A stretch of 64,000 bases of DNA, from contig JADKBM010000013.1 in assembly GCA_016715115.1 (NCBI GenBank), positions 423,475 through 487,474 on the forward strand, given 5' to 3'. The DNA comes from Acidobacteriota bacterium. Its GTDB lineage: Bacteria > Acidobacteriota > Blastocatellia > Pyrinomonadales > Pyrinomonadaceae. The notes below the pieces were generated by a model that was not told the origin of the DNA, searched no databases, and was given only the letters and a program-made list of their open reading frames with translations. Position numbers and translations under genes: made by a program. Below, piece by piece: positions 10,555 to 60,717 of this stretch. Positions within the stretch are counted from its first letter, which is position 1. Each line of letters begins with the position of its first letter.

Positions 10555-10692
10555 CGGATTTCGAATCGCAACTGCCGCGGCTGCCCGCCCGCTCACGCAG
10601 GCGGTACCCGACTCGCCGCAGATCACGAATCGCAAGTGCCCAATCACGAATCGCAAATGCCAAATCGCAAATGCCAAATCGCAAATCGCAAA
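10555..10692. repeat. Heptamer array (GCAAATC family, about 10 units at 10621-10692) plus 21-nt GC-rich core
   Basis: The units read gatcacg aatcgca agtgccc aatcacg aatcgca aatgcca aatcgca aatgcca aatcgca aatcgca aatca, and the last unit forms the S9 peptidase stop. The core cccgcccgctcacgcaggcgg (10584-10604) is the exact reverse complement of 37648-37668. Confidence 0.85.
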
Positions 10693-13110
10693 TCAGCGCG
10701 GCTTCGCGTTCTTGACCCACTTGTCGAACCATTCGACCTGCTCGGCGAGAACGGTTTCGATCGATTCACGGGCGCTGTAACCGTGGGACTCGAGCGGCAG
10801 CATCACGAGCCGTGCCGTGCCGCCGTTGCCCTGGATCGCGGCAAAGAGGCGTTCGGACTGGATCGGGAAGGTGCCCTGATTGTTGTCGGCCTCGCCGTGG
10901 ATCATCAACACAGGCTCATTGATCTTGTTGGCGAAAAAGAACGGCGAAACATTCTGGTAGAGTTCCTTCGCTTCCCAGAACGAGCGTCGTTCCGACTGAA
11001 AGCCGAACGGCGTCAAGGTGCGGTTGTAGGCCCCCGAACGAGCGATTCCGGCGCGGAAAATGTCCGAATGCGCGAGCAGGTTCGCGGTCATAAAGGCCCC
11101 GTAGCTGTGGCCGCCGACACCGACGCGGTCACGGTCGGTGACGCCCATCTCGACCGCCTTGTCGACCGCGGCCTGAGCTGCATCGACAACCTGCTTGATG
11201 AAGGTATCATTGACCGTCAAAGGATCGCCGACGATCGGCATCGTCGCGTCGTCGAGCACGGCATAGCCCTGGAGCAGGAAAAAGAGGTGTGAATAACTTC
11301 CGATCTGCGTGAACCGATTCGTCGAACCCGCGACTTGTCCGGCGGTCGAAGCATCGGTGAATTCGAGCGGATACGCCCAGACGACGGTCGGAAGCCGCGT
11401 CCCTTGTTTGTAATTCGGCGGCAAATAGAGCGTGAACGAGAGATCGACGCCGTCGGCGCGCTTGTATTTTACGAGCTGTTTCGTGATCCCGCGCAGTTGC
11501 GGCGCCGGATCCTTGAATTCGGTAAACTGACGATCGTAAACCGCGAGACATTCTGTCTTCGGCGGACAAACCTGGCGGAGACGAAGATTCGGCGGCTCGG
11601 TCGTCGATTCACGACGCGTGATGAACTGCGTCCCGTTGTCGTTCTGGAGAGCAACAAACGTTTCATAAGACGTCGTGTCCGAACGGAAGACCTCTTCGAA
11701 CTTCAGCGTCTGCAGATTCATCCGGCGCAGAAACGGCCGATCGCCTTCGGGCGAAGCGCCGGCGCCGGTCAGGAAGATATCGTCCCCGTCCTGATGCATA
11801 ACCGCGAAACCGTTCGCGAGACGTTTCGTCAGCGGTTGGCCGATGTCGCCGTAGCGATCGTTGACGCTGAGGTCGGAGATGAGCCGCGGCGTGCCCGGAT
11901 TACGGTAATCGACCGCGAAAACGCGTCGGCGCTGGGAGTCTCGATTGTAGTCGTAGAAGAACATCAGCCCGTCGCGCTCGCCGAAAACGCGGCCCATAAG
12001 ACGCTGTTCGATTTTGAACATCTCGGCCGGCGCACCATTGAACGGGGCGTCGATGCGAACCAGACGGTCGCGCTGCGCGACCTTTTTGCGCGGGTCGCCG
12101 TCGTCGAGCGCTTCGGCCCAAACGAGCGACGCGCCCTCGGTCGGAATCCATCCGTAGCTGCGCGGTCCGACGGGAACGCCCTGCGCGGGCAGGTTGTCCT
12201 GGAGCGGGATGCTCGCCACCTTGTAAACCGACTTGCCGTTCAGATCCCAGACTTCGACTTCCTTCGGAAAGCGGTTGAACGGGAAAAGATAAGAGAACGG
12301 TCGCTTGATGCGCGACGTCAGGATGTATTTTCCGTCCGGCGAAACGTCGCCGTTATCGAAGATTCCCGGCGCTCCGATGTTCTTGATCTTGCCGTCGAGG
12401 CTTACGACGGCAATCTGCGACGTCGCGTAATACTCGAACAGTTTTTCATCGTTGGGCGATTTGAGAAGATCCTGAAACGTCTGGACGACGCCTGTCTTTC
12501 CGGCCGTTTCCTGCATATTCGGAGACGTCGGAACGAGGTTCTGATACGCCGGCGCCGGACCCCGGTTCGCCGGAACAAGGCTGACGATCAGATGCTTCTG
12601 GTCGGGCATCCAGTCAAACTCGCCAAAAGCGGTGTTGACCTGCACGCCGTCGATCTTGCGGGCCTTGGCGGTCGCGGTTTCGACGATCCAGAGTTCGATT
12701 CCGGTCGGGGTGATATTGCCGACCGCGATGAATTTGCCGTCGCCGCTCCACGTCGGCGAAATGATCTTCGCTCCGGCGGGCAAGGCGACCGCGGTTTCCT
12801 TGCCGTCGGCGATGCTCTTGAGCGTCAGTTTGACGAAATACGGCTGTCGATGCTGCGAATTGCTGTTCGGATTGATACGCAAACCGGCGATCCGGAGCAT
12901 CGGTTCCGCAAGTTCGGCGATCGGCGGATAGCGCAACGGTTCGAGCAACGCGACGCGGTCCTTTGCGGGGCTGACCGAGGTCGAAGGGATCGCCGGTGCA
13001 TTGAGAACGTCGAGGATCTCCTTCGGCGGTTTCTTGTATTGCGCGTCGGCGGTTACCGCGATCGCGAGAATGGCCAGCACCAAAGCGGCCAGGTAATTCA
13101 TCTTTTTCAT
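10693..13110 (-). CDS. S9 family serine peptidase (prolyl oligopeptidase / dipeptidyl aminopeptidase type), secreted
   Basis: 805 aa. Signal peptide, N-terminal propeller-like region, and a C-terminal alpha/beta hydrolase with nucleophile elbow GGHSYGAFM and HGEADNN...H. Confidence 0.85.
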   Translation of the reverse strand: MKKMNYLAALVLAILAIAVTADAQYKKPPKEILDVLNAPAIPSTSVSPAKDRVALLEPLRYPPIAELAEPMLRIAGLRINPNSNSQHRQPYFVKLTLKSIADGKETAVALPAGAKIISPTWSGDGKFIAVGNITPTGIELWIVETATAKARKIDGVQVNTAFGEFDWMPDQKHLIVSLVPANRGPAPAYQNLVPTSPNMQETAGKTGVVQTFQDLLKSPNDEKLFEYYATSQIAVVSLDGKIKNIGAPGIFDNGDVSPDGKYILTSRIKRPFSYLFPFNRFPKEVEVWDLNGKSVYKVASIPLQDNLPAQGVPVGPRSYGWIPTEGASLVWAEALDDGDPRKKVAQRDRLVRIDAPFNGAPAEMFKIEQRLMGRVFGERDGLMFFYDYNRDSQRRRVFAVDYRNPGTPRLISDLSVNDRYGDIGQPLTKRLANGFAVMHQDGDDIFLTGAGASPEGDRPFLRRMNLQTLKFEEVFRSDTTSYETFVALQNDNGTQFITRRESTTEPPNLRLRQVCPPKTECLAVYDRQFTEFKDPAPQLRGITKQLVKYKRADGVDLSFTLYLPPNYKQGTRLPTVVWAYPLEFTDASTAGQVAGSTNRFTQIGSYSHLFFLLQGYAVLDDATMPIVGDPLTVNDTFIKQVVDAAQAAVDKAVEMGVTDRDRVGVGGHSYGAFMTANLLAHSDIFRAGIARSGAYNRTLTPFGFQSERRSFWEAKELYQNVSPFFFANKINEPVLMIHGEADNNQGTFPIQSERLFAAIQGNGGTARLVMLPLESHGYSARESIETVLAEQVEWFDKWVKNAKPR

Positions 13111-14521: not shown

Positions 14522-14622
14522 AGTGAAATCCTCGAAAGTTCTTTACGAAAGGTGGTTTTCAGAGTATAAACGAAAAGCAGTCCGGGCGGAAAATGGAACT
14601 TTGGAATTTGAACTTTGATCTT

Positions 14623-14753
14623 TGACTGGAGCGCAAGCGTCCCGCTTGCAACGGCGCCACGCGCCGAGAGGCTATGACATTTCGTCGCTTCGATTTCCAA
14701 CGACCCCTTCGCGCTCCGCGCTCATTGCAAGCGGGACGCTTGCGCTCCAGTCA
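14623..14753. repeat. Perfect 29-bp inverted repeat flanking a 73-nt spacer, in a divergent promoter region
   Basis: tgactggagcgcaagcgtcccgcttgcaa (14623-14651) and ttgcaagcgggacgcttgcgctccagtca (14725-14753). Each arm also holds an internal hairpin GCAAGCG-TCC-CGCTTGC. Confidence 0.9.
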
Positions 14754-14769
14754 GAGCCAACCCCTTTTT

Positions 14770-24534: not shown

Positions 24535-24536
24535 AG

Positions 24537-24665
24537 CAGCAGAGTGCAGAGTGCAGAGTGCAAAGTGCAGAGTGCAGAGAGCATAGTGCATAGTGCATAG
24601 TGCAGAGTGCAAGTGCTTACCCTTTGAACTCTGCACTATGCACTTTGCACTCTGCACTCTGCACT
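24537..24665. repeat. Heptamer palindrome (GCAGAGT / ACTCTGC) between convergent genes; likely bidirectional terminator hairpin
   Basis: About 11 GCAGAGT/GCATAGT/GCAAAGT units (24537-24616), the loop ttaccctttgaa, then 5 complementary units ctctgcactatgcactttgcactctgcactctgcact (24629-24665). Confidence 0.85.
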
Positions 24666-24670
24666 TGATT

Positions 24671-26152: not shown

Positions 26153-27883
26153 CTAGAATTTCGCGCCCAACCGGTCCGCGATCTCGTCGATCGAAACCTC
26201 GGTGATCGACTTTGAAGCGCGTTCGACCAGTTCGACGATCCCCTCGTCCGCGCGCTTGCCGATATTGACCCGGTAAGGAATCCCGATTAGATCGGCGTCC
26301 TTGAATTTCACGCCGGCGCGCTCGTCGCGGTCGTCGAGCAGAACAGCCAGCCCATCGCGTGAGATTTCACGATAGAGCCGTTTTCCGAGTTCCAAAAGCT
26401 TTTCATCGCGAACATTCGTGACCGTCAGAACGACATCGAACGGAGCCGTTGCCGGCGACCAGATTATACCATCGGCGTCGTGGCTCTGCTCAATAACCGA
26501 CGCCATAATGCGTTCGACACCGATACCGTAGCTGCCCATCACGAGCGGTACGGCCTTGCCGTTCTCGTCAAGAACGTTGGCGCCCATCGCGACCGAGTAT
26601 TTGGTCCCGAGTTTGAAGATATGGCCGATCTCGAGCGACTTTGCGACCTCGAGCATTCCGGTGCCGCATTCCGGACATCCTTCGCCCGAACTGACAAGAC
26701 GCAGGTCGGCCCATTCATCGACCGGAATGTCGCGCGCAACATCCACCCCCCGCAAGTGATGGTCGTCGCGATTCGCGCCGGTCGTCATATTCGTGCGGCC
26801 GCTGAGCGCCCGGTCGGCAATGATCGTCAGCTTCCGGCCGGCGGCTTTTTGCCGGGCATTGACGGCGCCGAGGCTTCCGGCGTGCGCGCCGAGAAGTCCG
26901 TAGATCTCATCATCTTCGGCCGGTCTGATCTCGTCGGCGCGGAGCGCGTCCTGAAGCTTCGTATCCTGCAGCTGATGGTCGCCGCGCAGGAGCGCGATCA
27001 CGAAACTCTCGGAACCGTTCGTTTTCGCTACGTAGATCAGCGATTTGACCTGCCGCTCGGCCGGGGCCCCGCCCGCGAAACTGGCGAGTTGATCGATCGT
27101 CCGCACGCCCGGGGTCGGAAATTCCTCCGGCGCATTCAAACCGGGTTCATCTTCGACGGCTGAAAGACGCGACGTCGCTTTTTCGACGTTCGCCGCATAG
27201 CCGCAACTGTCGCAAACGGCGATCAGGTCCTCGCCGGCGTCGGTTCGGACCATAAACTCGGTCGATGCCGAGCCGCCCATCGCGCCCGACGACGCTTCGA
27301 CCATCACGAACCGCAAACCGCAGCGCGAAAAGATCTTCTTGTATGCCTCGCGGTGTTTTTCGAACGATTCGTCGAGGCCTTCGGGTTTGAGGTCGAACGA
27401 ATACGAATCCTTCATCGTGAATTGGCGAACGCGAAGGAGTCCGGATTTCGGCCGCGCCTCGTCGCGGAATTTCGTCTGGATCTGATACCAGATCTGCGGC
27501 AGCTGCTTGTACGAGCGAAGTTCGTTGCGGGCAATGGCGGTGAAGACTTCCTCGTGAGTCATTCCAAGACAAAGATCCGCGCCCTTGCGGTCCTTGAGCC
27601 GGAACATATTGTCGCCCATCAACTGCCAACGGCCGGTTTCTTCCCAGATCTCGCGCGGATTCAGTGCCGGAAGCAGGAATTCCTGGGCGCCGATCGCGGC
27701 CATTTCCTCACGGACGATGGCGTTGATCTTGTTCAGCACGATCTGCGCCAGCGGCAGATACGAATAAATCCCGGCCGCCAACTGCCGGATCATTCCGGCC
27801 CTCAACAGCAAACGGTGCGACGCGCACTCAGCATCCGCCGGAGTTTCCTTCACGGTCGGAATAAAAAGATTTGACCAAAACAC
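26153..27883 (-). CDS. proS: Proline--tRNA ligase (bacterial type with editing insertion)
   Basis: 576 aa, GTG start. [46 protein letters not shown], class II motifs, and a C-terminal anticodon-binding domain. Confidence 0.9.
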
Positions 27884-27894
27884 TTTTTAATAGC

Positions 27895-28452
27895 GGATTT
27901 CTGATTTCGGATTTTGGATTGTCAGAAACCGACGCGTTCAATTGTATGCCCCGGCTTCACAATCAACAAGTATTTCGGCAAGCCAAGGTCCAAAATCCAG
28001 ATTTCAGATTCCAGATTCCAGATTCCAGAGATTCCAGAGATTCCAGATTCCAGATTTCAGATTCCAGAGATTCCAGATTCCAGATTCCAGAGATTCCAGA
28101 TTCCAGATTCCAGATTCCAGAAATTCCAGATTCCAGATTTCAGATTCCAGATTCCAGAAATTCCAGATTCCAGAGATTCCAGATTCCAGATTCCAGAGAT
28201 TCCAGAAATTCCAGATTTCAGATTCCAGATTTCAGATTCCAGAAATTCCAGATTCCAGAGATTCCAGAAATTCCAGATTCCAGATTCCAGAGATTCCAGA
28301 AATTCCAGATTCCAGATTCCAGAGATTCCAGATTCCAGAGATTCCAGATTCCAAGAATTCAACATCTTCCAGATTCAATGGAATTTGGAATTTGGAATTT
28401 GGAATCTGGAATATCTGAAATCCCAAATCCCAAATCCCAAATCCCAAATCCA
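27895..28452. repeat. Largest array: 46 tandem 7/9-nt units (AGATTCC / AGAGATTCC / AGAAATTCC) with nested inverted arms
   Basis: My parse of 28001-28355 gives 29 heptamers, 16 nonamers and 1 terminal 8-mer. Inverted short arm GGAATTT/GGAATCT at 28378-28413. (CCCAAAT)n at 28414-28451 pairs with GGATTTCTGATTTCGGATTTTGGATT at 27895-27920. Confidence 0.95.
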
Positions 28453-28453
28453 G

Positions 28454-29737
28454 CTAGTCTCGCCTTCCGTTCCCGTCGAGCGCCGTGTAGACATCGTCGG
28501 TGTAAAGTCCGAGCCATTTGTCGGCGTCGGGAGTTTTGAACAGATCGGAGTAGATCGTCGAATTGAAGTTCTCGAGCAGGAACTTGCCTCTAAAATTGTT
28601 GAGCCGGCGAATCAACTCGGTATGAAGAAGAAAGTCGTTGCGCGTCGTATCGAGCGCGACGATCGTTTTCAGTTTCGAGATCATATTCTCGAATTGCCGT
28701 GCTTCAAGTTCGCGGTTCTGGCGTTTAATGAACGCCAGGCTCGAAGCGTCGAGATCGATCGTGCCGGCATATTCGGCTGCGAGTTTTTGCCAGTCGCCGG
28801 ACGGGATCTGCGGTTCGAATCGGGCGAAATTATCGTCGAGATCACGAAGAATCGTCGCCTCGGTCGCCATTTTAGTTACCGCGATCGGCCCGATGTCGAT
28901 CGCTCTAGCAGTTTTCGGCTCTTCGGCTTCTTTGAGGACGACCTTGGTCCTGGCGATCGCGTCTTCGCGTCGCGAACGGATCGAATAGAACTGGTTTCGC
29001 CGATAGCCATTCAACGCCGGTCCGCGCCTTTCGGCCGGAGTGTTCAAGAGTTGCGCCGAGAAATCGTGTCCTCTCGTCAGATAACCGAGAAATGCGCCCG
29101 GATCATAGAGTCCAGGAAGCGCGTCGATAACTTCAGCGTCGGGCGAGAGAATGTAATGGATGCTGTTGCCGGTCAATGTCCGTTCGAGCTTGCGGCCGTC
29201 GCCGAAATCGATCGTCACTTTCGGGGCCGGACGAACCGATTTCCAGTGGAGAACGTAGTTTTCGCGAAGATAGCGTGAAATCGAAGAATTCGAATAAAGC
29301 AACGCGCGAAAGAATCTCGAATTCGCGCAGCTGAATTCCTCGTTGAGATTTCCCAGAAGTCTGAGCGACAGGATCGGCTTGTTCGTGCGTTTTGCCTCAG
29401 CGACCGCCTCGTTCAGGTCGGTATGCCAGAAAAGCCTCGACGCGTAAACATCCTTCTGCATCGCGACCGAATCGAGTGCGGACGTGATCAGCGGCCAGTC
29501 GCCATCGGGCTTGCTAGACTTCGTGAAGGTTGCGATCTCGGCGGAATAAGCATCGAAAAGGGCGTTCAAACCTTCAACTCCCATCGATCGCAATTCGCGG
29601 ATCGCCACGGCACGTTCGTTTTCGTTTTCGGAGACCGCGCCGCGGACAAGTTCGGCCCGCGTTTTTGAGAACGCCGAGACGGCCAAAACCTGAACGAGCG
29701 CGAAAACCAGCAAAAATCTGAGACCTTTATTCTTCAT
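28454..29737 (-). CDS. Secreted hypothetical protein with thioredoxin-fold-like segment lacking CxxC
   Basis: The ATG at 29737 (GAGGAG upstream) gives MKNKGLRFLLVFALVQVLAVSAFS. The segment WHTDLNEAVAEAKRTNKPILSLRLLGNL resembles DUF255/thioredoxin-like proteins. No firm family call. Confidence 0.6.
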   Translation of the reverse strand: MKNKGLRFLLVFALVQVLAVSAFSKTRAELVRGAVSENENERAVAIRELRSMGVEGLNALFDAYSAEIATFTKSSKPDGDWPLITSALDSVAMQKDVYASRLFWHTDLNEAVAEAKRTNKPILSLRLLGNLNEEFSCANSRFFRALLYSNSSISRYLRENYVLHWKSVRPAPKVTIDFGDGRKLERTLTGNSIHYILSPDAEVIDALPGLYDPGAFLGYLTRGHDFSAQLLNTPAERRGPALNGYRRNQFYSIRSRREDAIARTKVVLKEAEEPKTARAIDIGPIAVTKMATEATILRDLDDNFARFEPQIPSGDWQKLAAEYAGTIDLDASSLAFIKRQNRELEARQFENMISKLKTIVALDTTRNDFLLHTELIRRLNNFRGKFLLENFNSTIYSDLFKTPDADKWLGLYTDDVYTALDGNGRRD

Positions 29738-37602: not shown

Positions 37603-37720
37603 ATTGGGATTTGGGAATTCGGATTTGTGATTTGCGGCAAGTCAGAACCGCCTGCGTGAGCGGGCGGGCAACCACTGCACTTTTGGCCCTGGAATTCGGA
37701 ATGCCCGGAATCCCGGATCC
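37603..37720. repeat. Heptamer arms (GGGATTT / GGAATTC types) around the 21-nt GC-rich core
   Basis: attgggatttgggaattcggatttgtgatttgcgg begins right after the TGA at 37600-37602. The core ccgcctgcgtgagcgggcggg is at 37648-37668. The distal arm is ggaattcggaatgcccggaatcccggatcc. Confidence 0.8.
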
Positions 37721-46613: not shown

Positions 46614-48038
46614 ATGTACGAATTTGCCGTTACACCGGCCGTTACACAAGTCAGACGCGCCGGCGTGATCATTACGGATGTCGCTCCGGACTCTCTCGGC
46701 GTCGAGCTCGGACTTGAAAGCGGTGACCGCATCGTCAAGGTGAACGGGCGTTCGATCCGCGATTATCTCGATTTTCGATTCCAGACGTCTGGTGAGACCG
46801 AACTCGAATTCACCGTCAAGAAATCAAACGGCGAGACCTGGGAGATCGAACTCGATCGGGAAGAAGGTGAAGATTTCGGGCTCGGATTCGAACAGATCGT
46901 GCCGCGCCAATGCGCCAACGAATGTCTTTTCTGCTTCTGCAAGGGAAATCCCGAAGACGCGCGTCCGTCGCTTTTCGTGCGCGACGAAGATATCCGGCTC
47001 TCGTTTTTGTACGGGAATTACACGACGCTCTCGTCGATCACGCCCGACGAGATGAAGCGGATCGTCGAACAACGCCTGTCGCCGCAGTACGTTTCGGTCC
47101 ACGCGACGGATCTCAAGACGCGTGCCTATCTGCTTGGTGTCGATGAAAAACGGGCGGACATTTCCGACAAACTTCAGTTTCTTTTGGACAACGATATCGA
47201 GATCCACGCGCAGGTCGTACTCTGTCCGACGATCAATGACGGCGCACAGCTTGAGAAGACGCTGCGCGATCTGGCGGCGAGCTATCCGAAGGTTATCTCG
47301 ACGGCCGTCGTTCCGGTCGCGCTGACGCGCTACAACAAAGACGACCGACTGACGCGCGTGACGCCAGAATTCTGTCGCGCGACGATCAAGCAAGTCGAGA
47401 AGCTGCAGAAGGAATTTCGCAAAGAGCTGGGCGCAACGTTCGCTTTTCTCGGTGACGAGATCTACATTAAGGCGGGCGCACCGATCCCTTCGCGGCGGCA
47501 TTACGGAAACTATCCGCAGATCGAAGACGGCGTCGGGATGATCCGTTCGTTTCTGAACAGGTTCGAGAAGCTTGTCGGAACCTTGAATGGCGGCGGCGCA
47601 TTGACGAAACGCTCCAATCGAATCGACGCCCGGACCCATCTCGCCGCGTTCGTGCCGGAAAATCTAAAATCCAAAATCCAAAATCCAAAATCGAAAACCG
47701 GATCGATCCTGACCGGCGAAATGTTCGCGCCGATCCTCAGAACCGAAATCGAAAAGATCAATGCTTTGACGGGCGCGAGATTGAGCGTCCTTGCGGTTCC
47801 CAACACGTATTTCGGCGGTGATGTTTCGGTCTCGGGCCTGCTCACCGGACAGGATTATCTGGCCGTCAGGGGACAGGTCACGGGCGATTTTGTGATTATC
47901 CCGAAACATACGATCAAATCGGACGAACCGATTTTGCTCGACGGAATGACGTTCGACCAACTGAAGGAATCGTTCGAAGTTCCGATCTATGCCTTCGATC
48001 TTGAGGAACTCGCCGCCTTTGCGTTGAAGCTAAAGTAG
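46614..48038 (+). CDS. PDZ + radical-SAM-like + DUF512 protein (TIGR03279-type putative FeS enzyme)
   Basis: 474 aa. N-terminal PDZ (GLESGDRIVKVNG), a Cx3Cx2C motif (CANECLFC) and a DUF512-like C-terminus. It contains a 42-nt in-frame heptamer array (ENLKSKIQNPKSKT). Confidence 0.75.
   Translation: MYEFAVTPAVTQVRRAGVIITDVAPDSLGVELGLESGDRIVKVNGRSIRDYLDFRFQTSGETELEFTVKKSNGETWEIELDREEGEDFGLGFEQIVPRQCANECLFCFCKGNPEDARPSLFVRDEDIRLSFLYGNYTTLSSITPDEMKRIVEQRLSPQYVSVHATDLKTRAYLLGVDEKRADISDKLQFLLDNDIEIHAQVVLCPTINDGAQLEKTLRDLAASYPKVISTAVVPVALTRYNKDDRLTRVTPEFCRATIKQVEKLQKEFRKELGATFAFLGDEIYIKAGAPIPSRRHYGNYPQIEDGVGMIRSFLNRFEKLVGTLNGGGALTKRSNRIDARTHLAAFVPENLKSKIQNPKSKTGSILTGEMFAPILRTEIEKINALTGARLSVLAVPNTYFGGDVSVSGLLTGQDYLAVRGQVTGDFVIIPKHTIKSDEPILLDGMTFDQLKESFEVPIYAFDLEELAAFALKLK
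47659..47700. repeat. In-frame intragenic heptamer array (6 units, 42 nt) in the DUF512 gene
   Basis: aaaatct aaaatcc aaaatcc aaaatcc aaaatcg aaaaccg, translated as NLKSKIQNPKSKT. Confidence 0.85.
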
Positions 48039-49444: not shown

Positions 49445-49475
49445 GCTAATTTGATTGTAGATCGTTGAGCGCGAA

Positions 49476-49686
49476 TTGTTAATTTCGGATTCAAGATTCA
49501 AGAAAGATTTCAGATTCCGGATTCCAGGTATCCGGATTCCAGCGTTTAGGATTCCAGATTCCAGGATTCCAGGATTCCAGGATTCCAGGATTCCAGATTC
49601 CAGATTCAAGATTTCAGATTCCAAGAATTCAAGATTCCAAGAATTCAAGAATGATTCAAGATTCCAGGATTCCAGGATTCCAAGAG
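49476..49686. repeat. Heptamer array (GGATTCC / AGATTCC / AGATTCA family)
   Basis: Runs such as ggattccaggattccaggattccaggattccagattccagattcaagatttcagattcc. It lies upstream of the CDF gene start. Confidence 0.9.
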
Positions 49687-49965
49687 CCTGTCGGAAAAAT
49701 CGATTCAGTGTGCGGAGCAAACGCACATACGATAGCACCACGCGAAGCGGAGCGGAACGTGGTGTCAGCCGCGATCACCTCCAGCGAGCGTGTGAAACAC
49801 GCGGAACTGTTGCAAAAACGAGAGTTACGCGTGTTACACACGCTTAGGACGTCGGTTAGACAAGCCACCACGTTCCGCTCCGCTTCACGTGGTGTTATCG
49901 CAAGTTCGCGTGCTTCGCACGCTTGAAGAAGTAATGCCCGTTCCCAAACGGCTTTCTCCGACAGG
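49687..49965. repeat. About 279-nt nested palindromic element (possible structured RNA or MITE-like element)
   Basis: The outer arms are cctgtcgga (49687-49695) and tccgacagg (49957-49965). The 34-nt arms are gatagcaccacgcgaagcggagcggaacgtggtg (49731-49764) and caccacgttccgctccgcttcacgtggtgttatc (49866-49899), with 2 mismatches. At least four GCGTG-type mini-hairpins are present: tgtgcggagcaaacgcaca, gcgtgtgaaacacgc, gcgtgttacacacgc and gcgtgcttcgcacgc. Confidence 0.8.
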
Positions 49966-50085
49966 TTCCCAAGATCCAGATTCAAGATCCAAGATTCCAA
50001 GGATTCCAAATCCAGATTCCAAATTCCAGATTCCAGATCCGAATTCAAGATTCCAGAATTTCAAGGGTTCCAGATTGGGATCCCG
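49966..50085. repeat. Degenerate heptamer array (AGATTCC / AGATCCA family)
   Basis: ttcccaagatccagattcaagatccaagattccaaggattccaaatccagattccaaattccagattccagatccgaattcaagattccag. Confidence 0.85.
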
Positions 50086-50104
50086 AATCGCGTTGCAATC
50101 GCGT

Positions 50105-50213
50105 CGAGTCGGTACCATCTGCGGTAGCGGATGGTTGGTTGCGGCACTCGCGGACCGCAGTATTGATACCAACCTATCTTCAACCATCCGCTACCGCAGA
50201 TGGTACCGACTCG
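50105..50213. repeat. Perfect 33-bp inverted repeat with 43-nt spacer
   Basis: cgagtcggtaccatctgcggtagcggatggttg (50105-50137) and caaccatccgctaccgcagatggtaccgactcg (50181-50213). The spacer holds a small hairpin, tgcgg...ccgca. Confidence 0.9.
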
Positions 50214-50249
50214 TCCCGACCCCGCATACAAAGAACCCGTGGGTTTTTC

Positions 50250-50392
50250 AAAGCTCCAGATTCAAGATTCCAGATTGAAGGATCTCGAGTCCGGGCGTTT
50301 TAGATTTCTTGAATCGTGGAATCTGGAATCTTGGAATCGAAAATCCCAAATCCCAAATCCCAAATCCCAAATCCCAAATCCCAAATCCCAAA
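50250..50392. repeat. Heptamer arrays ending in (CCCAAAT)x7, abutting the xdhC stop
   Basis: ccagattcaagattccagattgaag...ggaatctggaatcttggaatcg, then 7 CCC tracts at 50345-50389. The final aaatca supplies the TGA of xdhC (50393-50395). Confidence 0.9.
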
Positions 50393-51421
50393 TCAGCGGT
50401 TCTTGACCGCGATGATCTCGGCCGCGATCGATATGGCGATCTCTTCAGGCGTTCGGCTGTTGATCGGAAGCCCGATCGGCGTCCGGATCCGTTTTAGCCG
50501 TTCGCCTTCGAAACCCTCCTTTTTCAATGAGTTCAGCAGAACCTTCATCTTGGCCTTGCTTCCCAAAACCCCGAAGTATTTGAAGTTCTTGTCAACAAGG
50601 CGACGGATGACGATCTCGTCGAAGCGGTATCCGAGCGTCATTGCGACGACGTAATGGTCCTCGCCGGAGTCGATCATCTGGTCGATCGACTCGTATGAGT
50701 CAATGATCGTTTTGCGATCCGCGAAGACGTTCTTCTCGACCGTGTTGAGTTCGTTTCGGTCATCGAACAACTCGATGTGAAAATCGAGTTTCGCCATCAA
50801 CTCCGAAAGTGCAAGCGCGCAATGCCCGCCGCCGACGATGAAAAGTCTCGGCTTTCGACCGATCGTTTCTTCATAAACGAACTTCGAAGCTCCGCCCTTA
50901 GAAGTTCCGCCGTATGGAGTTCCGCCTTCAGGCGGCCCTTCCTCCGCCACCCAGAACCCGATTTCCGACGAACCGAAGTCATCGGAGATCGCCAGCCCGC
51001 GTTCAGTGATCTTGAACCGGATCACCCGCGATTCGCCGAGCGCGTCGCAAATCGCACGTACCGTCGGCAGATCACCCGCGTCGAGCGCGCAGACGATCAC
51101 CGTCTGGCTTCCCGAGCAGATCATCCCGCTCGCGTCCGGAACATTCGGCCGGTGAACAAGCGTTTGGATTTTGGATTTTGGATTTTGGACTTCGGATTCG
51201 TCGGTGCGATCGTTGCGCGCTTGATCGACGAGCGCAACCTCCATCACACCGCCGCCGATCGAGCCAATCATTTCGTCATCGGCGACAACCATTTTGAATC
51301 CCGCGCGGCCGGGCGAACTGCCTGAACTCTCGGCGACGACGATCAAGATCGCGCGTTCGCCCGAATCCAGACGTTCGCGGGCAAAGTTCCAGAGTTCCGA
51401 TTCAAACCTCATTCGATGCAT
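50393..51421 (-). CDS. xdhC: XdhC/CoxI family molybdenum-cofactor insertion accessory protein
   Basis: ATG at 51421 (or 51412). The N-domain reads AILIVVAESSGSSPGRAGFKMVV and the C-terminal Rossmann reads RLFIVGGGHCALALSELM. It carries in-frame repeat insertions (QNPKSKIQ; PPEGGTPYGGTSKGGASK). Confidence 0.8.
   Translation of the reverse strand: MHRMRFESELWNFARERLDSGERAILIVVAESSGSSPGRAGFKMVVADDEMIGSIGGGVMEVALVDQARNDRTDESEVQNPKSKIQTLVHRPNVPDASGMICSGSQTVIVCALDAGDLPTVRAICDALGESRVIRFKITERGLAISDDFGSSEIGFWVAEEGPPEGGTPYGGTSKGGASKFVYEETIGRKPRLFIVGGGHCALALSELMAKLDFHIELFDDRNELNTVEKNVFADRKTIIDSYESIDQMIDSGEDHYVVAMTLGYRFDEIVIRRLVDKNFKYFGVLGSKAKMKVLLNSLKKEGFEGERLKRIRTPIGLPINSRTPEEIAISIAAEIIAVKNR
50882..50937. 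repeat. Intragenic (xdhC) 15-nt x3 tandem repeat overlapping the 22-nt hairpin element
   Basis: The sense strand reads GGCGGAACTCCATAC GGCGGAACTTCTAAG GGCGGAGCTTCGAAG (GGTPY GGTSK GGASK). GGAGTTCCGCCTTCAGGCGGCC at 50916-50937 is identical to 52359-52380. Confidence 0.8.
51167..51208. repeat. In-frame intragenic heptamer array in xdhC
   Basis: ggatttt ggatttt ggatttt ggacttc ggattcg (tcggtgc), translated on the minus strand as ESEVQNPKSKIQ. Confidence 0.8.
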
Positions 51422-53980: not shown

Positions 53981-53992
53981 TACGAATTAGAT

Positions 53993-54470
53993 GGTAGACG
54001 GTAGACGGTAGACGGTAGAGGGTAGACGGTAGACGGTAGAGGGTAGACGGTAGACGGTAGACGGTAGAGGGTAGACGGTAGACGGTAGAGGGTAGACGGT
54101 AGAGGGTAGACGGTAGACGGTAGACGGTAGACGGTAGACCGCCAACCTCTCACTGCTCACCTCTCACCTCTCACCTCTCACTGCTCACCTCTCACTGCTC
54201 ACCTCTCACTGCTCACCTCTCACTGCTCACCTCTCACTGCTCACCTCTCACCGCTCACCTCTCATTGCTCACCTCTCACTCACTGCTCACCTCTCACCTC
54301 TCACCTCTCACCGACCACTGACCACCGACCACTGACCACCGACCACTGCTCACTGCTCACCGCTCACCGCTCACCGCTCACTGCTCACCGCTCACTGCTC
54401 ACCGCTCACCGCTCACTGCTCACCGCTCACCGCTCACCGCTCACCGCTCACCGCTCACCGCTCACTGCCA
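53993..54470. repeat. Composite heptamer arrays filling the xdhA-xdhB spacer
   Basis: 21 units of GGTAGAC/GGTAGAG (53993-54139). Then CTCTCAC/TGCTCAC units (about 54147-54310), CGACCACTGACCAC units (about 54311-54347) and GCTCACC/GCTCACT units (to about 54470) that include the xdhA stop and last codons. Confidence 0.95.
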
Positions 54471-55899
54471 CGAAGTGCGCCCGGAAAAGCTGGCGCGCCA
54501 ACAGACGTTTGTATTCGGCCGAACCGCGAACGTCGGAGATCGGCGCGATCTCCGTTTGCAGGATCGCCTCCGCTTCTTCGAGGATCGCATCGTTGATCGG
54601 TTTTCCGCTCAGGAACGCCGAGGTCTTTCTTAACAACAAAGGCGTCGGCGCGACCCCGCCGATCGAGACGCGCGCCGTTTCGACAACATCGCCCGAAAGC
54701 CTGAGCGCGATCGCCGTATTAACAGAAGCGATGTCAAGATAGGTTCGTTTCGAGACCTTTTCAAAATTGAAATGCGTGAAATCCTTGCGAATTGAGATCT
54801 TCGAAATGATCTCCGACTCAACCTTTGCGAGCTGCTTGTAACCCAAATACAAATCAGATAACGCAATGTTCCGAATTCCGAAATCCGAATTCCCAATTCC
54901 GAAATCGCGTAGTTCCAATTCGGCGTCGAGCGCCAGAAAAAAGACCGTCATATCGCCGATCGGCGAGGCATTTACAAAATTGCCGGCGAGCGTCGCCATA
55001 TTCCTGATCGGCGTCGACGAAACCAATTTCAAATACTTGTCAAGGTTCGGAAAAAGCCGATGGAAGACTTCAGACTCGAGCAAGTCGGTGACGACGACAG
55101 ACGGGCCGATCTCGACCGTTTCGTCGGTCTCGCGGATGAACCGAAGCGCAGGATCGTCAAACAAACTCGTCGCACCCGCGTGGACCATTTCGTCGTGCTT
55201 CTGAACGTAAAGGTCCGTGCCGCCGGCGACGAATCTTGGGGTGGTGATTTCGGATGATACGGATTTCAGACCTTCGGAGTCGGGATGTTCGCGCACCAAC
55301 AATTCGAGACGCCGCCCGATGGATTCGAAATATTTCGGAACCGCACCGGCGGCGATCGCCTTCTCGATTTGCGACTGTGACTTGTTGAGCATCGCATTGC
55401 CGAAATCCGAAATCCCAAATCCCAAATCCGAAATCCTCTCGCACGCCCGCTCGATCGACTTGTAACCCGTGCAGCGGCAAATGTTTCCGTCGATCGCCGC
55501 AACCACCGATTCTTTGGTTTTCTGACCGTCGCCGAGGCAAAAACCGGTCAGAGACATCACGAATCCAACCGTGCAGAATCCGCATTGAGTTCCGGATTCG
55601 TCGACCAACGCTGCCTGCGCGGGTGTCAGGCTTCCGTCGGCCGGGTTGATTCCTTCGACAGTCACGATATGCTTGCCGCGCGCATTCAAGAGCGGCATCA
55701 GGCACGATGTCATCGAACGATATCTGAGGTCTCCGTCCTTGAGTTCACCGACGAGGATCGTGCACGCCCCGCAATCCCCTTCGCGGCAGCCGATCTTCGT
55801 TCCCTTCAGATTCTTGTGATACCGAACAAAGTCGAGCACCGTCGTTCCGCCTGGGAGATCGGTTTCGACGGATTGATTGTTGAGAATAAATTCGATCAT
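54448..55899 (-). CDS. xdhA: Xanthine dehydrogenase small subunit (2x [2Fe-2S] + FAD-binding domains)
   Basis: The ATG at 55899 gives MIEFILNNQSV. Contains CREGDCGACT, CGFCTVGFVMS and CRCTGYKSI, then FAD_binding_5-like VAGGTDLYV. There are two in-frame heptamer insertions, and the last codons are repeat-encoded. Confidence 0.85.
   Translation of the reverse strand: MIEFILNNQSVETDLPGGTTVLDFVRYHKNLKGTKIGCREGDCGACTILVGELKDGDLRYRSMTSCLMPLLNARGKHIVTVEGINPADGSLTPAQAALVDESGTQCGFCTVGFVMSLTGFCLGDGQKTKESVVAAIDGNICRCTGYKSIERACERISDLGFGISDFGNAMLNKSQSQIEKAIAAGAVPKYFESIGRRLELLVREHPDSEGLKSVSSEITTPRFVAGGTDLYVQKHDEMVHAGATSLFDDPALRFIRETDETVEIGPSVVVTDLLESEVFHRLFPNLDKYLKLVSSTPIRNMATLAGNFVNASPIGDMTVFFLALDAELELRDFGIGNSDFGIRNIALSDLYLGYKQLAKVESEIISKISIRKDFTHFNFEKVSKRTYLDIASVNTAIALRLSGDVVETARVSIGGVAPTPLLLRKTSAFLSGKPINDAILEEAEAILQTEIAPISDVRGSAEYKRLLARQLFRAHFVAVSGER
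54871..54909. repeat. In-frame intragenic heptamer-type array in xdhA (FAD domain)
   Basis: ccgaattccgaaatccgaattcccaattccgaaatcgcg, translated on the minus strand as RDFGIGNSDFGIR. Confidence 0.75.
55401..55436. repeat. In-frame intragenic heptamer array in xdhA (linker after the 2Fe-2S domains)
   Basis: cgaaatc cgaaatc ccaaatc ccaaatc cgaaatc c, translated on the minus strand as SDLGFGISDFG. Confidence 0.8.
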
Positions 55900-59935: not shown

Positions 59936-60129
59936 TTTTGGATTTGCGATTTGCGATTTTGGATTCCAGATATTCCAGATATTCCAGATTCCAACATCGA
60001 AAATTCCAAATTCCAAATTCCAAATTCCAAATTCCAAATTCCAAAATCCAAAATCCAAAATCGCAAATCGCAAATCGCAAATCGCAAATCGCAAATCGCA
60101 AATCGCAAATCGCAAATTCCAAAATCGAA
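59936..60129. repeat. Composite heptamer array between the VOC gene stop and the glycosylase start
   Basis: gattttg gatttgc gatttgc gattttg, then gattcca/gatattcca units, then aaattcc x6, aaaatcc x2-3, aaatcgc x8, and finally aaaatcgaa-ATG. The 5' arm is the reverse complement of the 3' AAATCGC block. Confidence 0.95.
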
Positions 60130-60717
60130 ATGCTTGCCCGTCAATTCTATCTTCGTACCGACACGCTCGCGATCGCCAGGGATCTGATCGGTAAACTGCT
60201 CATCGTTCAGGATCCCGAACACGGACGCGTGTCCGGGATGATCGTCGAAACCGAGGCGTATCTCGGTGAGATCGACAGGGCGGCGCATTCCTACGGCGGG
60301 CGGCGAACGGCGCGAAACGAGATCACCTACGCGGCCGGCGGTCATACTTACGTCTTTTTCGTTTACGGAATGTACTTTCAGCTCAACATCGTCTGCGGTC
60401 CCGAAGACTCGCCGCATGTTTGTCTGATCCGCGCCGTCGAACCCGTCGAAAACATCGAACTGATGCGCGAACGGCGAAAGACCGTGCAGGATCTGAATTT
60501 GACTTCGGGACCCGGAAAATTATGCGTCGCCCTCGGTATCAACAAAAGCTTTAACGGCGCGGATCTGCTCGGAAATCGAATTTGGCTGGAAGATTTTCGT
60601 ACAGTCGGCGGGGAAGAGGTCGGAAGCGGGAAACGCGTCGGCATCGATTACGCCGGGGAATTCGCCGCCAAACCCTGGCGCTTCTGGTTGAAAGGGAACA
60701 AGTTCGTGTCGCGTTGA
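60130..60717 (+). CDS. DNA-3-methyladenine glycosylase (Mpg/AAG family)
   Basis: The ATG at 60130 gives MLARQFYLRTDTLAIARDLIGKLL...IVETEAYLG..DRAAHSYGGRRT.RNE.....GGH.YVYF.YGM. The ORF-track start at 59932 is pure repeat sequence. Confidence 0.85.
   Translation: MLARQFYLRTDTLAIARDLIGKLLIVQDPEHGRVSGMIVETEAYLGEIDRAAHSYGGRRTARNEITYAAGGHTYVFFVYGMYFQLNIVCGPEDSPHVCLIRAVEPVENIELMRERRKTVQDLNLTSGPGKLCVALGINKSFNGADLLGNRIWLEDFRTVGGEEVGSGKRVGIDYAGEFAAKPWRFWLKGNKFVSR

Follow-up and report, generated by a model that had tools for sequence, protein, structure and literature searches.

A hypervariable heptanucleotide repeat between a conserved hypothetical gene and proS in a Blastocatellia-like acidobacterium

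Introduction

Long simple sequence repeats (SSRs), with units of 5-11 nt, are found in many bacterial genomes, and later papers relate of the original survey that heptanucleotides are their commonest class in many of these genomes and that replication slippage was proposed as their origin (Mrazek 2007, via PMC4679880 and PMC4692102). Here, we analyse a repeat of this kind in a 64,000-nt stretch of acidobacterial DNA (the window, whose coordinates are used throughout), where a 570-bp spacer composed largely of heptamers separates a conserved hypothetical gene from proS, the gene for proline--tRNA ligase, both on the minus strand. The head-to-tail, single-period arrangement that defines heptanucleotide repeats of the long SSR class is present at the proS array. 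As far as the class is portrayed in those later papers, the array also conforms to it in being intergenic, in belonging to a large-genome, non-host-adapted bacterium in which period 7 is over-represented, and in its presumed growth by slippage; it differs in its unusual length (46-60 units), in mixing 7- and 9-nt units, and in its nested inverted blocks. In the searchable literature, we found no paper linking heptamer arrays to Acidobacteria or Blastocatellia.

Among described systems, the closest parallels are the intergenic GGGAATC arrays of Xanthomonas and GGGGA(C/T)T arrays of Nostoc, which lie mostly 0-50 nt from a neighbouring open reading frame (ORF) (Rehm et al. 2015, PMC4692102). Those of Xanthomonas often form inverted pairs, and they vary in length and sequence between species while the flanking genes remain unchanged (PMC4692102). 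Similarly, the proS locus carries a G3 heptamer, GGGAUUU, near the upstream stop codon, with at least four G3 tracts, one per heptamer, within the same 0-50 nt of the stop, together with an inverted copy and with variation between relatives whose flanks are conserved. In contrast to the Xanthomonas and Nostoc arrays, the motif is a different one, a 33-bp hairpin is predicted in preference to a G-quadruplex, and the G-rich block is connected with a non-G-rich array of far greater length. The proS locus has the defining traits of the general class, and the Xanthomonas type is its nearest match.

Two other heptamer systems have been connected with gene expression. In Haemophilus influenzae, hmw1A carries a transcribed (ATCTTTC)n repeat that forms a hairpin with a G-rich arm and is cut by RNase III, longer repeats giving less expression (PMC12721329, PMC8262952). 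An upstream heptamer repeat, a predicted long hairpin with a G-rich arm and a strain-variable unit number are likewise present at proS. However, the hmw1A repeat belongs to the 5' untranslated region (UTR) of a surface adhesin gene, whereas the predicted proS promoter lies downstream of the big array and proS encodes a housekeeping tRNA synthetase. In Beggiatoaceae, TAACTGA direct repeats stand immediately before start codons, and a role in translation has been proposed (PMC4679880). The (AAUCCRA)4 mini-array just ahead of the proS start recalls this arrangement, but Beggiatoaceae have a single motif in 2-6 copies, as opposed to the many motifs and far longer arrays seen here.

The short tandemly repeated repetitive (STRR) sequences of heterocystous cyanobacteria, CCCCAGT and others, are the classical dispersed heptamer families. 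They are mentioned for Calothrix PCC 7601 (PMC4692102). A small set of motif families, forming short tandem arrays at many intergenic loci and common to related genomes, is also what we observe; membership is rejected, since phylum and motifs differ and STRR sequences do not occur in the window, so that STRR serves as an analogue only. Repetitive extragenic palindromic elements and bacterial interspersed mosaic elements (REP/BIME) are enterobacterial hairpin palindromes at 3' ends and between cistrons, a conserved family mobilised by RAYT transposases. The hairpins described here occupy the same kinds of positions and could stabilise upstream mRNA in the same manner, but they differ in sequence from locus to locus. 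We know of no heptamer array in a free-living bacterium whose function has been established, the single locus with a known function, hmw1A, belonging to a pathogen.

The proS spacer most likely adds a further case to a known type of bacterial repeat and is no new system; through it, the phenomenon now reaches Acidobacteria, a phylum of soil and sludge that is abundant and for the most part uncultured. It is a lineage-specific expansion within a genome-wide heptamer phenomenon, not a dedicated regulatory device of proS. The explanation that we favour, with some reserve, is that a compound hypervariable heptanucleotide repeat lies between the stop codon of the upstream gene and a promoter belonging to proS itself, the array being a tolerated by-product.

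Anatomy of the proS spacer

The features of the locus are given below in window coordinates. Orthologous or related loci in other assemblies are named as L001-L109, and Tandem Repeats Finder (TRF) consensus units are given where they were obtained.

26153-27883, minus strand: proS (proline--tRNA ligase), GTG start; NCBIfam NF006625, 750.9 bits, profile aligned from residue 3
27894-27920, minus strand: start-proximal mini-array, which reads (AAUCCRA)~4 on the coding strand and is 11 nt away from the proS GTG; TRF CGGATTT x3.9
27921-27986, minus strand: unique island with the predicted proS promoter, from the window/L100/L102 alignment
27987-28000, minus strand: remnant GGAUUUUGGA of a putative ancestral stop-proximal array, complementary to the mini-array part 27905-27918
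28001-28355, unstranded: main array of 46 units, ATTCCAG on the plus strand, equal to CUGGAAU on the coding strand; from unit parse and TRF
28356-28379, unstranded: degenerate linker from main array to inverted block, read directly; identical in L108
28380-28414, minus strand: inverted block, GGAATTT x3, GGAATCT and GGAATAT on the plus strand, AAAUUCC/AGAUUCC on the coding strand; TRF TGGAATT x4.9 at 28379-28412
28415-28453, minus strand: stop-proximal array, (AUUUGGG)5 on the coding strand, 5' arm of a predicted hairpin; TRF AAATCCC x4.9 at 28418-28451
28454-29737, minus strand: conserved hypothetical gene that ends in a stop codon right beside the arrays; product of 427 aa counted from ATG, its N-terminus resembling a signal peptide

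The proS product has the Pfam domains tRNA-synt_2b, tRNA_edit and HGTP_anticodon, and its N-terminus aligns with relatives that start with ATG, TTG or GTG at the same codon. The upstream protein matched no family in Pfam or NCBIfam. Its TAG stop codon occupies 28454-28456, and the heptamer run begins 4 nt further on. Thus the 570-bp same-strand spacer between a proS start at 27883 and an upstream stop at 28454, as an initial annotation made from the sequence had it, agrees with our coordinates.

When split at each CAG, the main array resolves into 24 ATTCCAG, 5 ATTTCAG, 10 AGATTCCAG, 6 AAATTCCAG and 1 ATTCCAAG. These 46 units, of which 29 are heptamers, 16 nonamers and one an 8-mer, add up to 355 nt, and the parse in the initial annotation is reproduced exactly. 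TRF places the array at 27996-28353 (period 7, 46.6 copies, 81% matches, score 393). Inside the array, the longest stretch repeated exactly measures 56 nt (offset 32 nt), which points to growth by multi-unit duplication.

The description in the initial annotation is accurate, and the feature is real and striking, with a few details that we amend. The inverted block had been placed from 28378 and starts at 28380, its units ending with a GGAATAT in addition to the three GGAATTT and one GGAATCT. A (CCCAAAT)n block reported at 28414-28451 exists, as four copies plus CC at 28422-28451 preceded by CTGAAAT. The sequence of 27895-27920, GGATTTCTGATTTCGGATTTTGGATT, had been read as the complement of this block, and 22 of its 26 positions are indeed complementary. 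Five overlapping phantom ORFs cross the array, three on the plus strand and two on the minus strand, as had been counted; the accompanying statement that the repeat unit has no stop codon in any of the six frames holds for the three plus-strand frames, whereas on the minus strand each of the five ATTTCAG units gives a TGA.

Hypervariability of the array within the species

A second assembly of the same species (L108; GCA_016712785.1, contig JADJQL010000001.1) differs from the window at 8 positions of proS (1731 nt) and 7 of the upstream gene (1284 nt), the flanking genes being 99.5% identical. Its proS spacer measures 671 bp against 570 bp in the window, with a CTGGAAT array of 462 nt (~60 units) against 354 nt (46 units) and four ATTTGGG copies against five. 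The two strains agree over the 102 nt of the array nearest the promoter and the 23 nt nearest the stop codon, and between these the array is reorganised; outside the array and the ATTTGGG block, the spacer is identical save for one single-nucleotide polymorphism (SNP). For comparison, the convergent spacer between the protease gene and larB differs by one 7-nt unit and one SNP. Because the array is present in two assemblies, it is real, and its unit number, whose reality the initial annotation had marked for checking, differs by ~14 units between conspecific strains. The array is hypervariable, changing far faster than the neighbouring sequence.

Arrays of this type break short-read assemblies and create phantom ORFs. 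Short-read contigs of the same species (L109) and of the relative with 88% ProS identity (L101) both break inside arrays. In the public annotation of L108, a 214-aa minus-strand "gene" is called at 2326-2970, wholly within the repeat spacer; we regard this call as a phantom ORF resulting from the stop-free array.

Persistent and volatile parts of the spacer among relatives

L100, L104, L106 and L107, whose ProS proteins are 88%, 84%, 84% and 82% identical to that of the window, share with it the gene order CarH-like, HlyIII, upstream hypothetical, proS, protease, and the upstream hypothetical gene adjoins proS in these four loci and in L108. Their spacers are composed as follows.

L100, 139 bp: TAG, (GATTTTG)~4, island, (CAAAATC)~4, ATG
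L104, 290 bp: (ATTTGGG)3(ATTTTGG)2, two GC-rich REP-like hairpins, leader AAATCC...CCCCAAACC
L106, ~310 bp: TTTGGATTTTG, three copies of GCCCGCCCGCTGACGCAGGCGG..., two (CTTTTTA)n arrays
L107, ~250 bp: (TGGATTT)~5, ~110 nt of (CCATTCT)/(CCCCTTTT) arrays, (ATCCGAA)n before a TTG start

The CTGGAAT array occurs in none of these four orthologous spacers, which indicates that the big array and the AAATTCC block are recent additions and that the mini-arrays are persistent. In most relatives with 82-88% ProS identity, an (ATTTKGG)n array near the stop codon and an (AAATCCR)n array near the start codon are retained; the second takes the form (AAAATCC/AAATCCG)n and immediately precedes proS in L100, L101, L102, L107 and L108. 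In L102 (87%), the upstream gene is a different and divergent one, and (GATTTTG)3, the island and (AATCCGA)3 still precede proS. Across the series, the same spacer ranges from 139 bp to 671 bp, and the promoter-like motif with its flanking mini-arrays sets the persistent parts apart from the volatile one.

More distant Blastocatellia also have inverted heptamer pairs in their proS spacers, with unrelated motifs:

L001: CTTTGTA / TACAAAG
L002: TTGCCGA / CAATCGG
L009: GTTTCGG / CGAAACC
L010: GGTGTCA / CCTGACA

The upstream protein has 19 metagenomic homologues at 42-64% identity, the best (64%) being the partial L096. Its gene lay next to proS in none of 80 more distant proS loci and in none of the 19 homologue loci.

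A predicted promoter between the array and proS

Alignment of the window with L100 and L102 revealed an invariant GCATACAATTG block, the best-conserved part of the spacer. TTGTTG (TTGTTA in L102) stands 17 nt (16 nt in L102) upstream of TACAAT and the bases in between vary, a pattern expected of -35 and -10 elements. On the minus strand of the window, the predicted -35 TTGTTG lies at 27969-27964 and the predicted -10 TACAAT at 27946-27941, from which we infer a transcription start site near 27934 and an A-rich leader of ~50 nt that has no Shine-Dalgarno sequence and includes the mini-array. proS therefore probably has its own promoter, downstream of the 46-unit array; the main array would then lie upstream of the promoter and the 27894-27920 mini-array inside the leader. 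The argument is one of conservation, since a scan of the spacer with the sigma-70 consensus called no promoter. In L102, where the neighbouring gene is different and divergent, proS must have a promoter of its own.

The initial annotation had reasoned that the spacer is either co-transcribed or must contain the proS promoter. This dichotomy is logically right, and the conserved TTGTTG-17-TACAAT in the island favours its second branch.

The island at 27921-27986 is single-copy in the window and in all loci compared, and it matches only orthologous proS loci. We also considered that the inverted arrays and the island form a mobile module of the REP type or a miniature inverted-repeat transposable element (MITE), and rejected this because the island is single-copy.

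In more distant Pyrinomonadaceae (L001-L005 and L007), a different and conserved motif, GCTAAGCGAGAATG, occurs 8-100 nt before the proS ATG; it is not found in the window. In three of these loci it stands only 8-9 nt before the ATG, a placement that suggests a -10-like element and a near-leaderless proS mRNA. Farther upstream, GATGGTACATCAC occurs in L002, L004 and L007, with near matches in L005 and L001.

Predicted RNA structures

RNA folds were computed for the minus-strand transcript unless stated otherwise, using ViennaRNA with G-quadruplex energies for G-quadruplexes. The whole spacer folds at -219.9 kcal/mol (z = -10.7), with the stop-proximal blocks paired to the far end of the array. 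Locally, (AUUUGGG)5 pairs with AGAUUCC/(AAAUUCC)3 in a hairpin at 28379-28452 that has an uninterrupted 33-bp stem and a 7-nt loop, reaches -45.3 kcal/mol (z = -6.6) and begins 1 nt past the upstream stop codon. The inverted block at 28380-28414, which supplies the 3' arm of this hairpin, is also complementary to the main array: its AAAUUCC units match those of the array perfectly and can pair with either partner, so that the two pairings are mutually exclusive. The stem relies on G.U pairs, with -44.8 kcal/mol on the minus strand against -24.9 kcal/mol on the plus strand. The same hairpin design follows the stop codon of XdhC at 50290-50400, and both hairpins are far more stable in the sense strand. 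This is no general rule, given that ten co-directional inverted pairs showed no consistent sense-strand bias (about four sense, four antisense and two equal).

The nested A-B'-B-A' architecture proposed in the initial annotation exists, and we revise the pairing within it. The most stable local stem is that of the adjacent blocks A' and B', and the partner of 27895-27920, as seen in relatives, is the GGATTTTGGA remnant at 27987-28000 and not only the distant CCCAAAT block. In the window read-through fold, this remnant pairs weakly with the leader sequence UCCAAAAUCC (z = -2.1). In L100, the homologous (GATTTTG)4 directly after the stop codon pairs with the leader array, and the read-through folds of L100 (z = -3.9) and L104 (z = -5.1) pair the stop-proximal array with the leader array almost to the AUG. 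The L107 read-through fold gave no such stop-proximal:leader pairing (z = -0.2).

The hairpin was also considered as an intrinsic terminator. No terminator-like site was found in 27884-28453, and the candidate was rejected: the hairpin is AU/GU-rich and is followed by AUUGAAUCUGG with no U-tract. G-quadruplex motifs of the form G3N4 are present in (GGGAUUU)5 at 28415-28453 and, a second time, in (GGGAUUU)7.7 at 50341-50394. For the isolated G-rich block, the G-quadruplex is favoured (-14.1 vs -9.0 kcal/mol), while in context the hairpin is predicted to win at -44.8 kcal/mol. As to known structured RNAs such as a T-box, riboswitch or leader, a search of the whole window against Rfam gave no match at gathering score, the spacer returning only sub-threshold miRNA-precursor hairpins.

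Period-7 arrays across the window and the clade

Using one strict criterion for all periods, we found 26 arrays of period 7 covering 1129 bp of the window, whereas none of the other periods from 5 to 12 covered more than 143 bp. Shuffled versions of the window gave none for periods 6-12 and ~21 bp for period 5. Period-7 arrays number 0.31 per kb in the window, 0.36 in eight close-relative loci, 0.10 in other Blastocatellia loci and 0.03 in other Acidobacteria loci, a gradient showing that their proliferation is clade-specific. The host itself is a Blastocatellia/Pyrinomonadaceae-like Acidobacterium: among the matches listed, the closest ProS proteins in species-representative genomes come from metagenome-assembled genomes (MAGs) of Pyrinomonadaceae and Blastocatellia, at no more than 67% identity.

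On a rough gene map with 43 intergenic spacers, and at a TRF score of at least 40, arrays occupy 7 of the 43 (5 co-directional and 2 convergent, with none of the 8 divergent spacers). In the window and the Acidobacteria loci together, the array begins 0-11 nt from a stop codon in 12 of 13 cases, and in several the stop codon forms part of the last unit. Across the Acidobacteria loci there are 16 inverted heptamer pairs, and a few motif families (ATTCCAG, AAATCCC and others) recur at non-orthologous loci and across genomes.

Proposed origin of the spacer and alternative explanations

In the explanation we favour, the ancestral core would have consisted of two short inverted arrays, (ATTTKGG)n right behind the stop codon and (AAATCCR)n just ahead of the proS start, flanking a sigma-70-like promoter. 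This species would then have gained an inverted pair, (AAATTCC)4/(CTGGAAT)n, on the stop-proximal side, and one arm would have expanded to 46-60 units by replication slippage and multi-unit duplication. proS would be transcribed from its own promoter with a short A-rich leader that holds the mini-array. On the upstream transcript, the 33-bp hairpin would form upon transcription and could block exonucleases, be cut by RNase III or weakly terminate transcription. Largely a tolerated by-product, the long array would keep the two transcription units apart without any function that depends on its sequence; this neutrality, like the role of the hairpin, is presumed. Starting from the upstream gene, the proposed order is stop codon, 33-bp 3' hairpin, hypervariable array, proS promoter, heptamer-bearing leader and proS.

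Several observations weigh against this explanation. The hairpin is without a U-tract and is thus no canonical intrinsic terminator. The island site has 8 of 12 matches to the sigma-70 consensus, below the threshold of the scan, and the island is common only to the two closest non-conspecific relatives, L104, L106 and L107 being different there. Arrays that appear to be transcribed through at coxSM-coxL and in L009 and L010 make read-through over the proS array quite possible. Moreover, simple neutral slippage leaves two things unexplained: the recurrence of motif families at unrelated, non-orthologous loci, which independent local slippage does not predict, and the persistence of the mini-arrays over 82-88% ProS identity, which may reflect selection rather than a mere by-product.

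Co-transcription with hairpin-mediated processing is a serious rival, even if we consider it doubtful. The spacer would then be an intercistronic element of an operon, and its hairpins (A':B', B':array and stop-proximal:start-proximal) would act as REP or RNase III sites that set the expression ratio or mask the proS initiation region; this is compatible with a separate proS promoter if both kinds of transcript exist. The genes lie on the same strand with no canonical terminator between them, the entire spacer is predicted to fold far more stably than expected, and in the L100 and L104 read-through folds the pairing of the stop-proximal array with the leader array stops a few nt short of the AUG. 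In L009 and L010, inverted arrays fill the whole stretch from stop codon to ATG before proS and leave no room for a promoter; in the presumptive coxSM-coxL operon of the window, arrays make up a 467-bp spacer; and a precedent exists in the RNase III processing of the hmw1A 5' UTR heptamer hairpin of H. influenzae (PMC12721329). However, the conserved TTGTTG-17-TACAAT lies downstream of the array, the L102 module is kept upstream of proS despite a different and divergent neighbour, and the two genes are not adjacent in the 80 distant proS loci or the 19 homologue loci. In addition, the ten co-directional inverted pairs lack the consistent sense bias that selection on an RNA structure would leave.

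An unlikely but more far-reaching explanation is that the arrays of this clade constitute not junk but a genome-wide, fast-evolving system with a small repertoire of motif families seeded at many loci, in which inverted pairs bracket stop codons, promoters and starts and insulate adjacent transcription units. Under such a system, the long stem would form only on read-through RNA, bringing the stop beside the start and leaving the downstream leader masked or processed, and array length would be a heritable, rapidly mutating setting. If this were true, the motif recurrence and the in-frame spread into coding linkers described below would point to a dedicated spreading or homogenising mechanism.

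We consider it improbable that the spacer is a contingency locus or tuning knob in which changes of unit number reversibly tune or switch proS. Unit number does differ between strains whose flanking genes are 99.5% identical, and hmw1A expression is inversely proportional to the number of upstream heptamers (PMC12721329). However, the array lies outside the -35/-10 interval and the predicted leader, so that its length leaves promoter geometry unaltered, and the promoter-proximal 102 nt are the same in both strains. proS is an essential single-function housekeeping gene rather than a surface or host-interaction gene, and similar arrays stand beside many unrelated genes. Classical phase variation of proS is likewise unlikely from the geometry, the leader containing only a 4-unit mini-array, given the predicted (unmapped) promoter.

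It is very improbable that the length and unit order are artefacts of mis-assembled low-complexity reads or of sequencing. The short-read contigs L101 and L109 do break in arrays, and indel errors left uncorrected could account for some odd 6-nt units (CTGAAT) in L108. However, two independent assemblies place the array between identical flanks, the longest exact repeat of 56 nt can be resolved with k of at least 57 or with long reads, the irregular order of four unit types is unlike a collapsed or looped assembly graph, and comparable arrays occur in many independent assemblies of relatives.

CsrB-type RNAs carry ~20 GGA motifs, and the omega protein of pSM19035 binds runs of 7-bp heptads, direct and inverted. 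That the spacer is a binding array of this sort, with 46 GGA units sponging a CsrA-type regulator or heptads bound by a ribbon-helix-helix protein, has resemblance to these two systems in its favour and is scarcely credible: with motifs as unrelated as TAGACGG, CACCGCT and GCAGAGT at other loci, the phenomenon cannot be put down to one binding protein; an array transcript of its own would need a promoter, and none is evident; and Rfam gave no match.

Other repeats in the window

Outside the proS spacer, TRF identified the following arrays.

10617-10694: CGCAAAT array
24539-24616 and 24628-24665: GCAGAGT and its complement
49488-50394: GATTCCAG, TCCAGAT and AAATCCC arrays
53988-54139: TAGACGG x21.7
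54145-54465: ACCGCTC x46.3
59937-60131: ATTCCAA and AAATCGC arrays

The coxSM-coxL spacer (53981-54447, 467 bp) consists almost entirely of (TAGACGG)x21.7 and (CACCGCT/CACCTCT/CACTGCT)x46.3. The second array includes the stop codon of coxSM, and the first lies 7 nt from the coxL start, so that the arrays must be transcribed through if the genes form an operon.

Arrays of the AAAATCC/AAATCCG family are also found within coding genes, with the frame unbroken, at 47659-47697, 51163-51198, 54869-54921 and 55400-55436. The first, in a DUF512 radical-SAM protein, encodes ...NLKSKIQNPKSKTG... and is 39 nt long, a multiple of 3; the second, between two domains of XdhC, encodes ...EVQNPKSKIQT... in 36 nt, again a multiple of 3. 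The remaining two lie in a fused CoxS-CoxM ORF and encode ISDLGFGISDFG and RDFGIGNSDFGI.

A 936-bp spacer at 49457-50392 repeats the design of the proS spacer on the minus strand, with a stop codon followed by (AUUUGGG)7.7, (AGAUUCC)n and (AAUCUGG)n. Two large unique inserts, each of them palindromic, break it up: the first, at 49690-49965, has inverted termini CCTGTCGGAAAAA...TTTCTCCGACAGG, and the second, at ~50097-50215, has long and nearly perfect arms GTCGGTACCATCTGCGGTAGCGGATGGTTG...; both resemble MITE-type insertions into heptamer arrays. A GC-rich REP-like sequence, GCCCGCCCGCTSACGCAGGCGG, occurs twice in the window (10583-10604 on the plus strand and 37648-37669 on the minus strand; 0 expected), each copy between short heptamer arrays, and three times in the spacer between the upstream gene and proS in L106 (84% ProS identity; L106 2600-2900).

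The convergent spacer between larB and the protease gene (24535-24670) is filled by (GCAGAGT)11 and five copies of its complement, with predicted hairpins of -92 kcal/mol on the plus strand and -82 kcal/mol on the minus strand. The orthologous spacers carry ATTTGGG/CCCAAAT in L104, ~100-nt TCAAGAA/TTCTTGA arms in L106 and GCAGAGT in L107. Finally, a divergent spacer at 14596-14760 contains (GAACTTT)x4 followed by a large near-perfect palindrome, CTGGAGCGCAAGCGTCCCGCTTGCAA...TTGCAAGCGGGACGCTTGCGCTCCAG.

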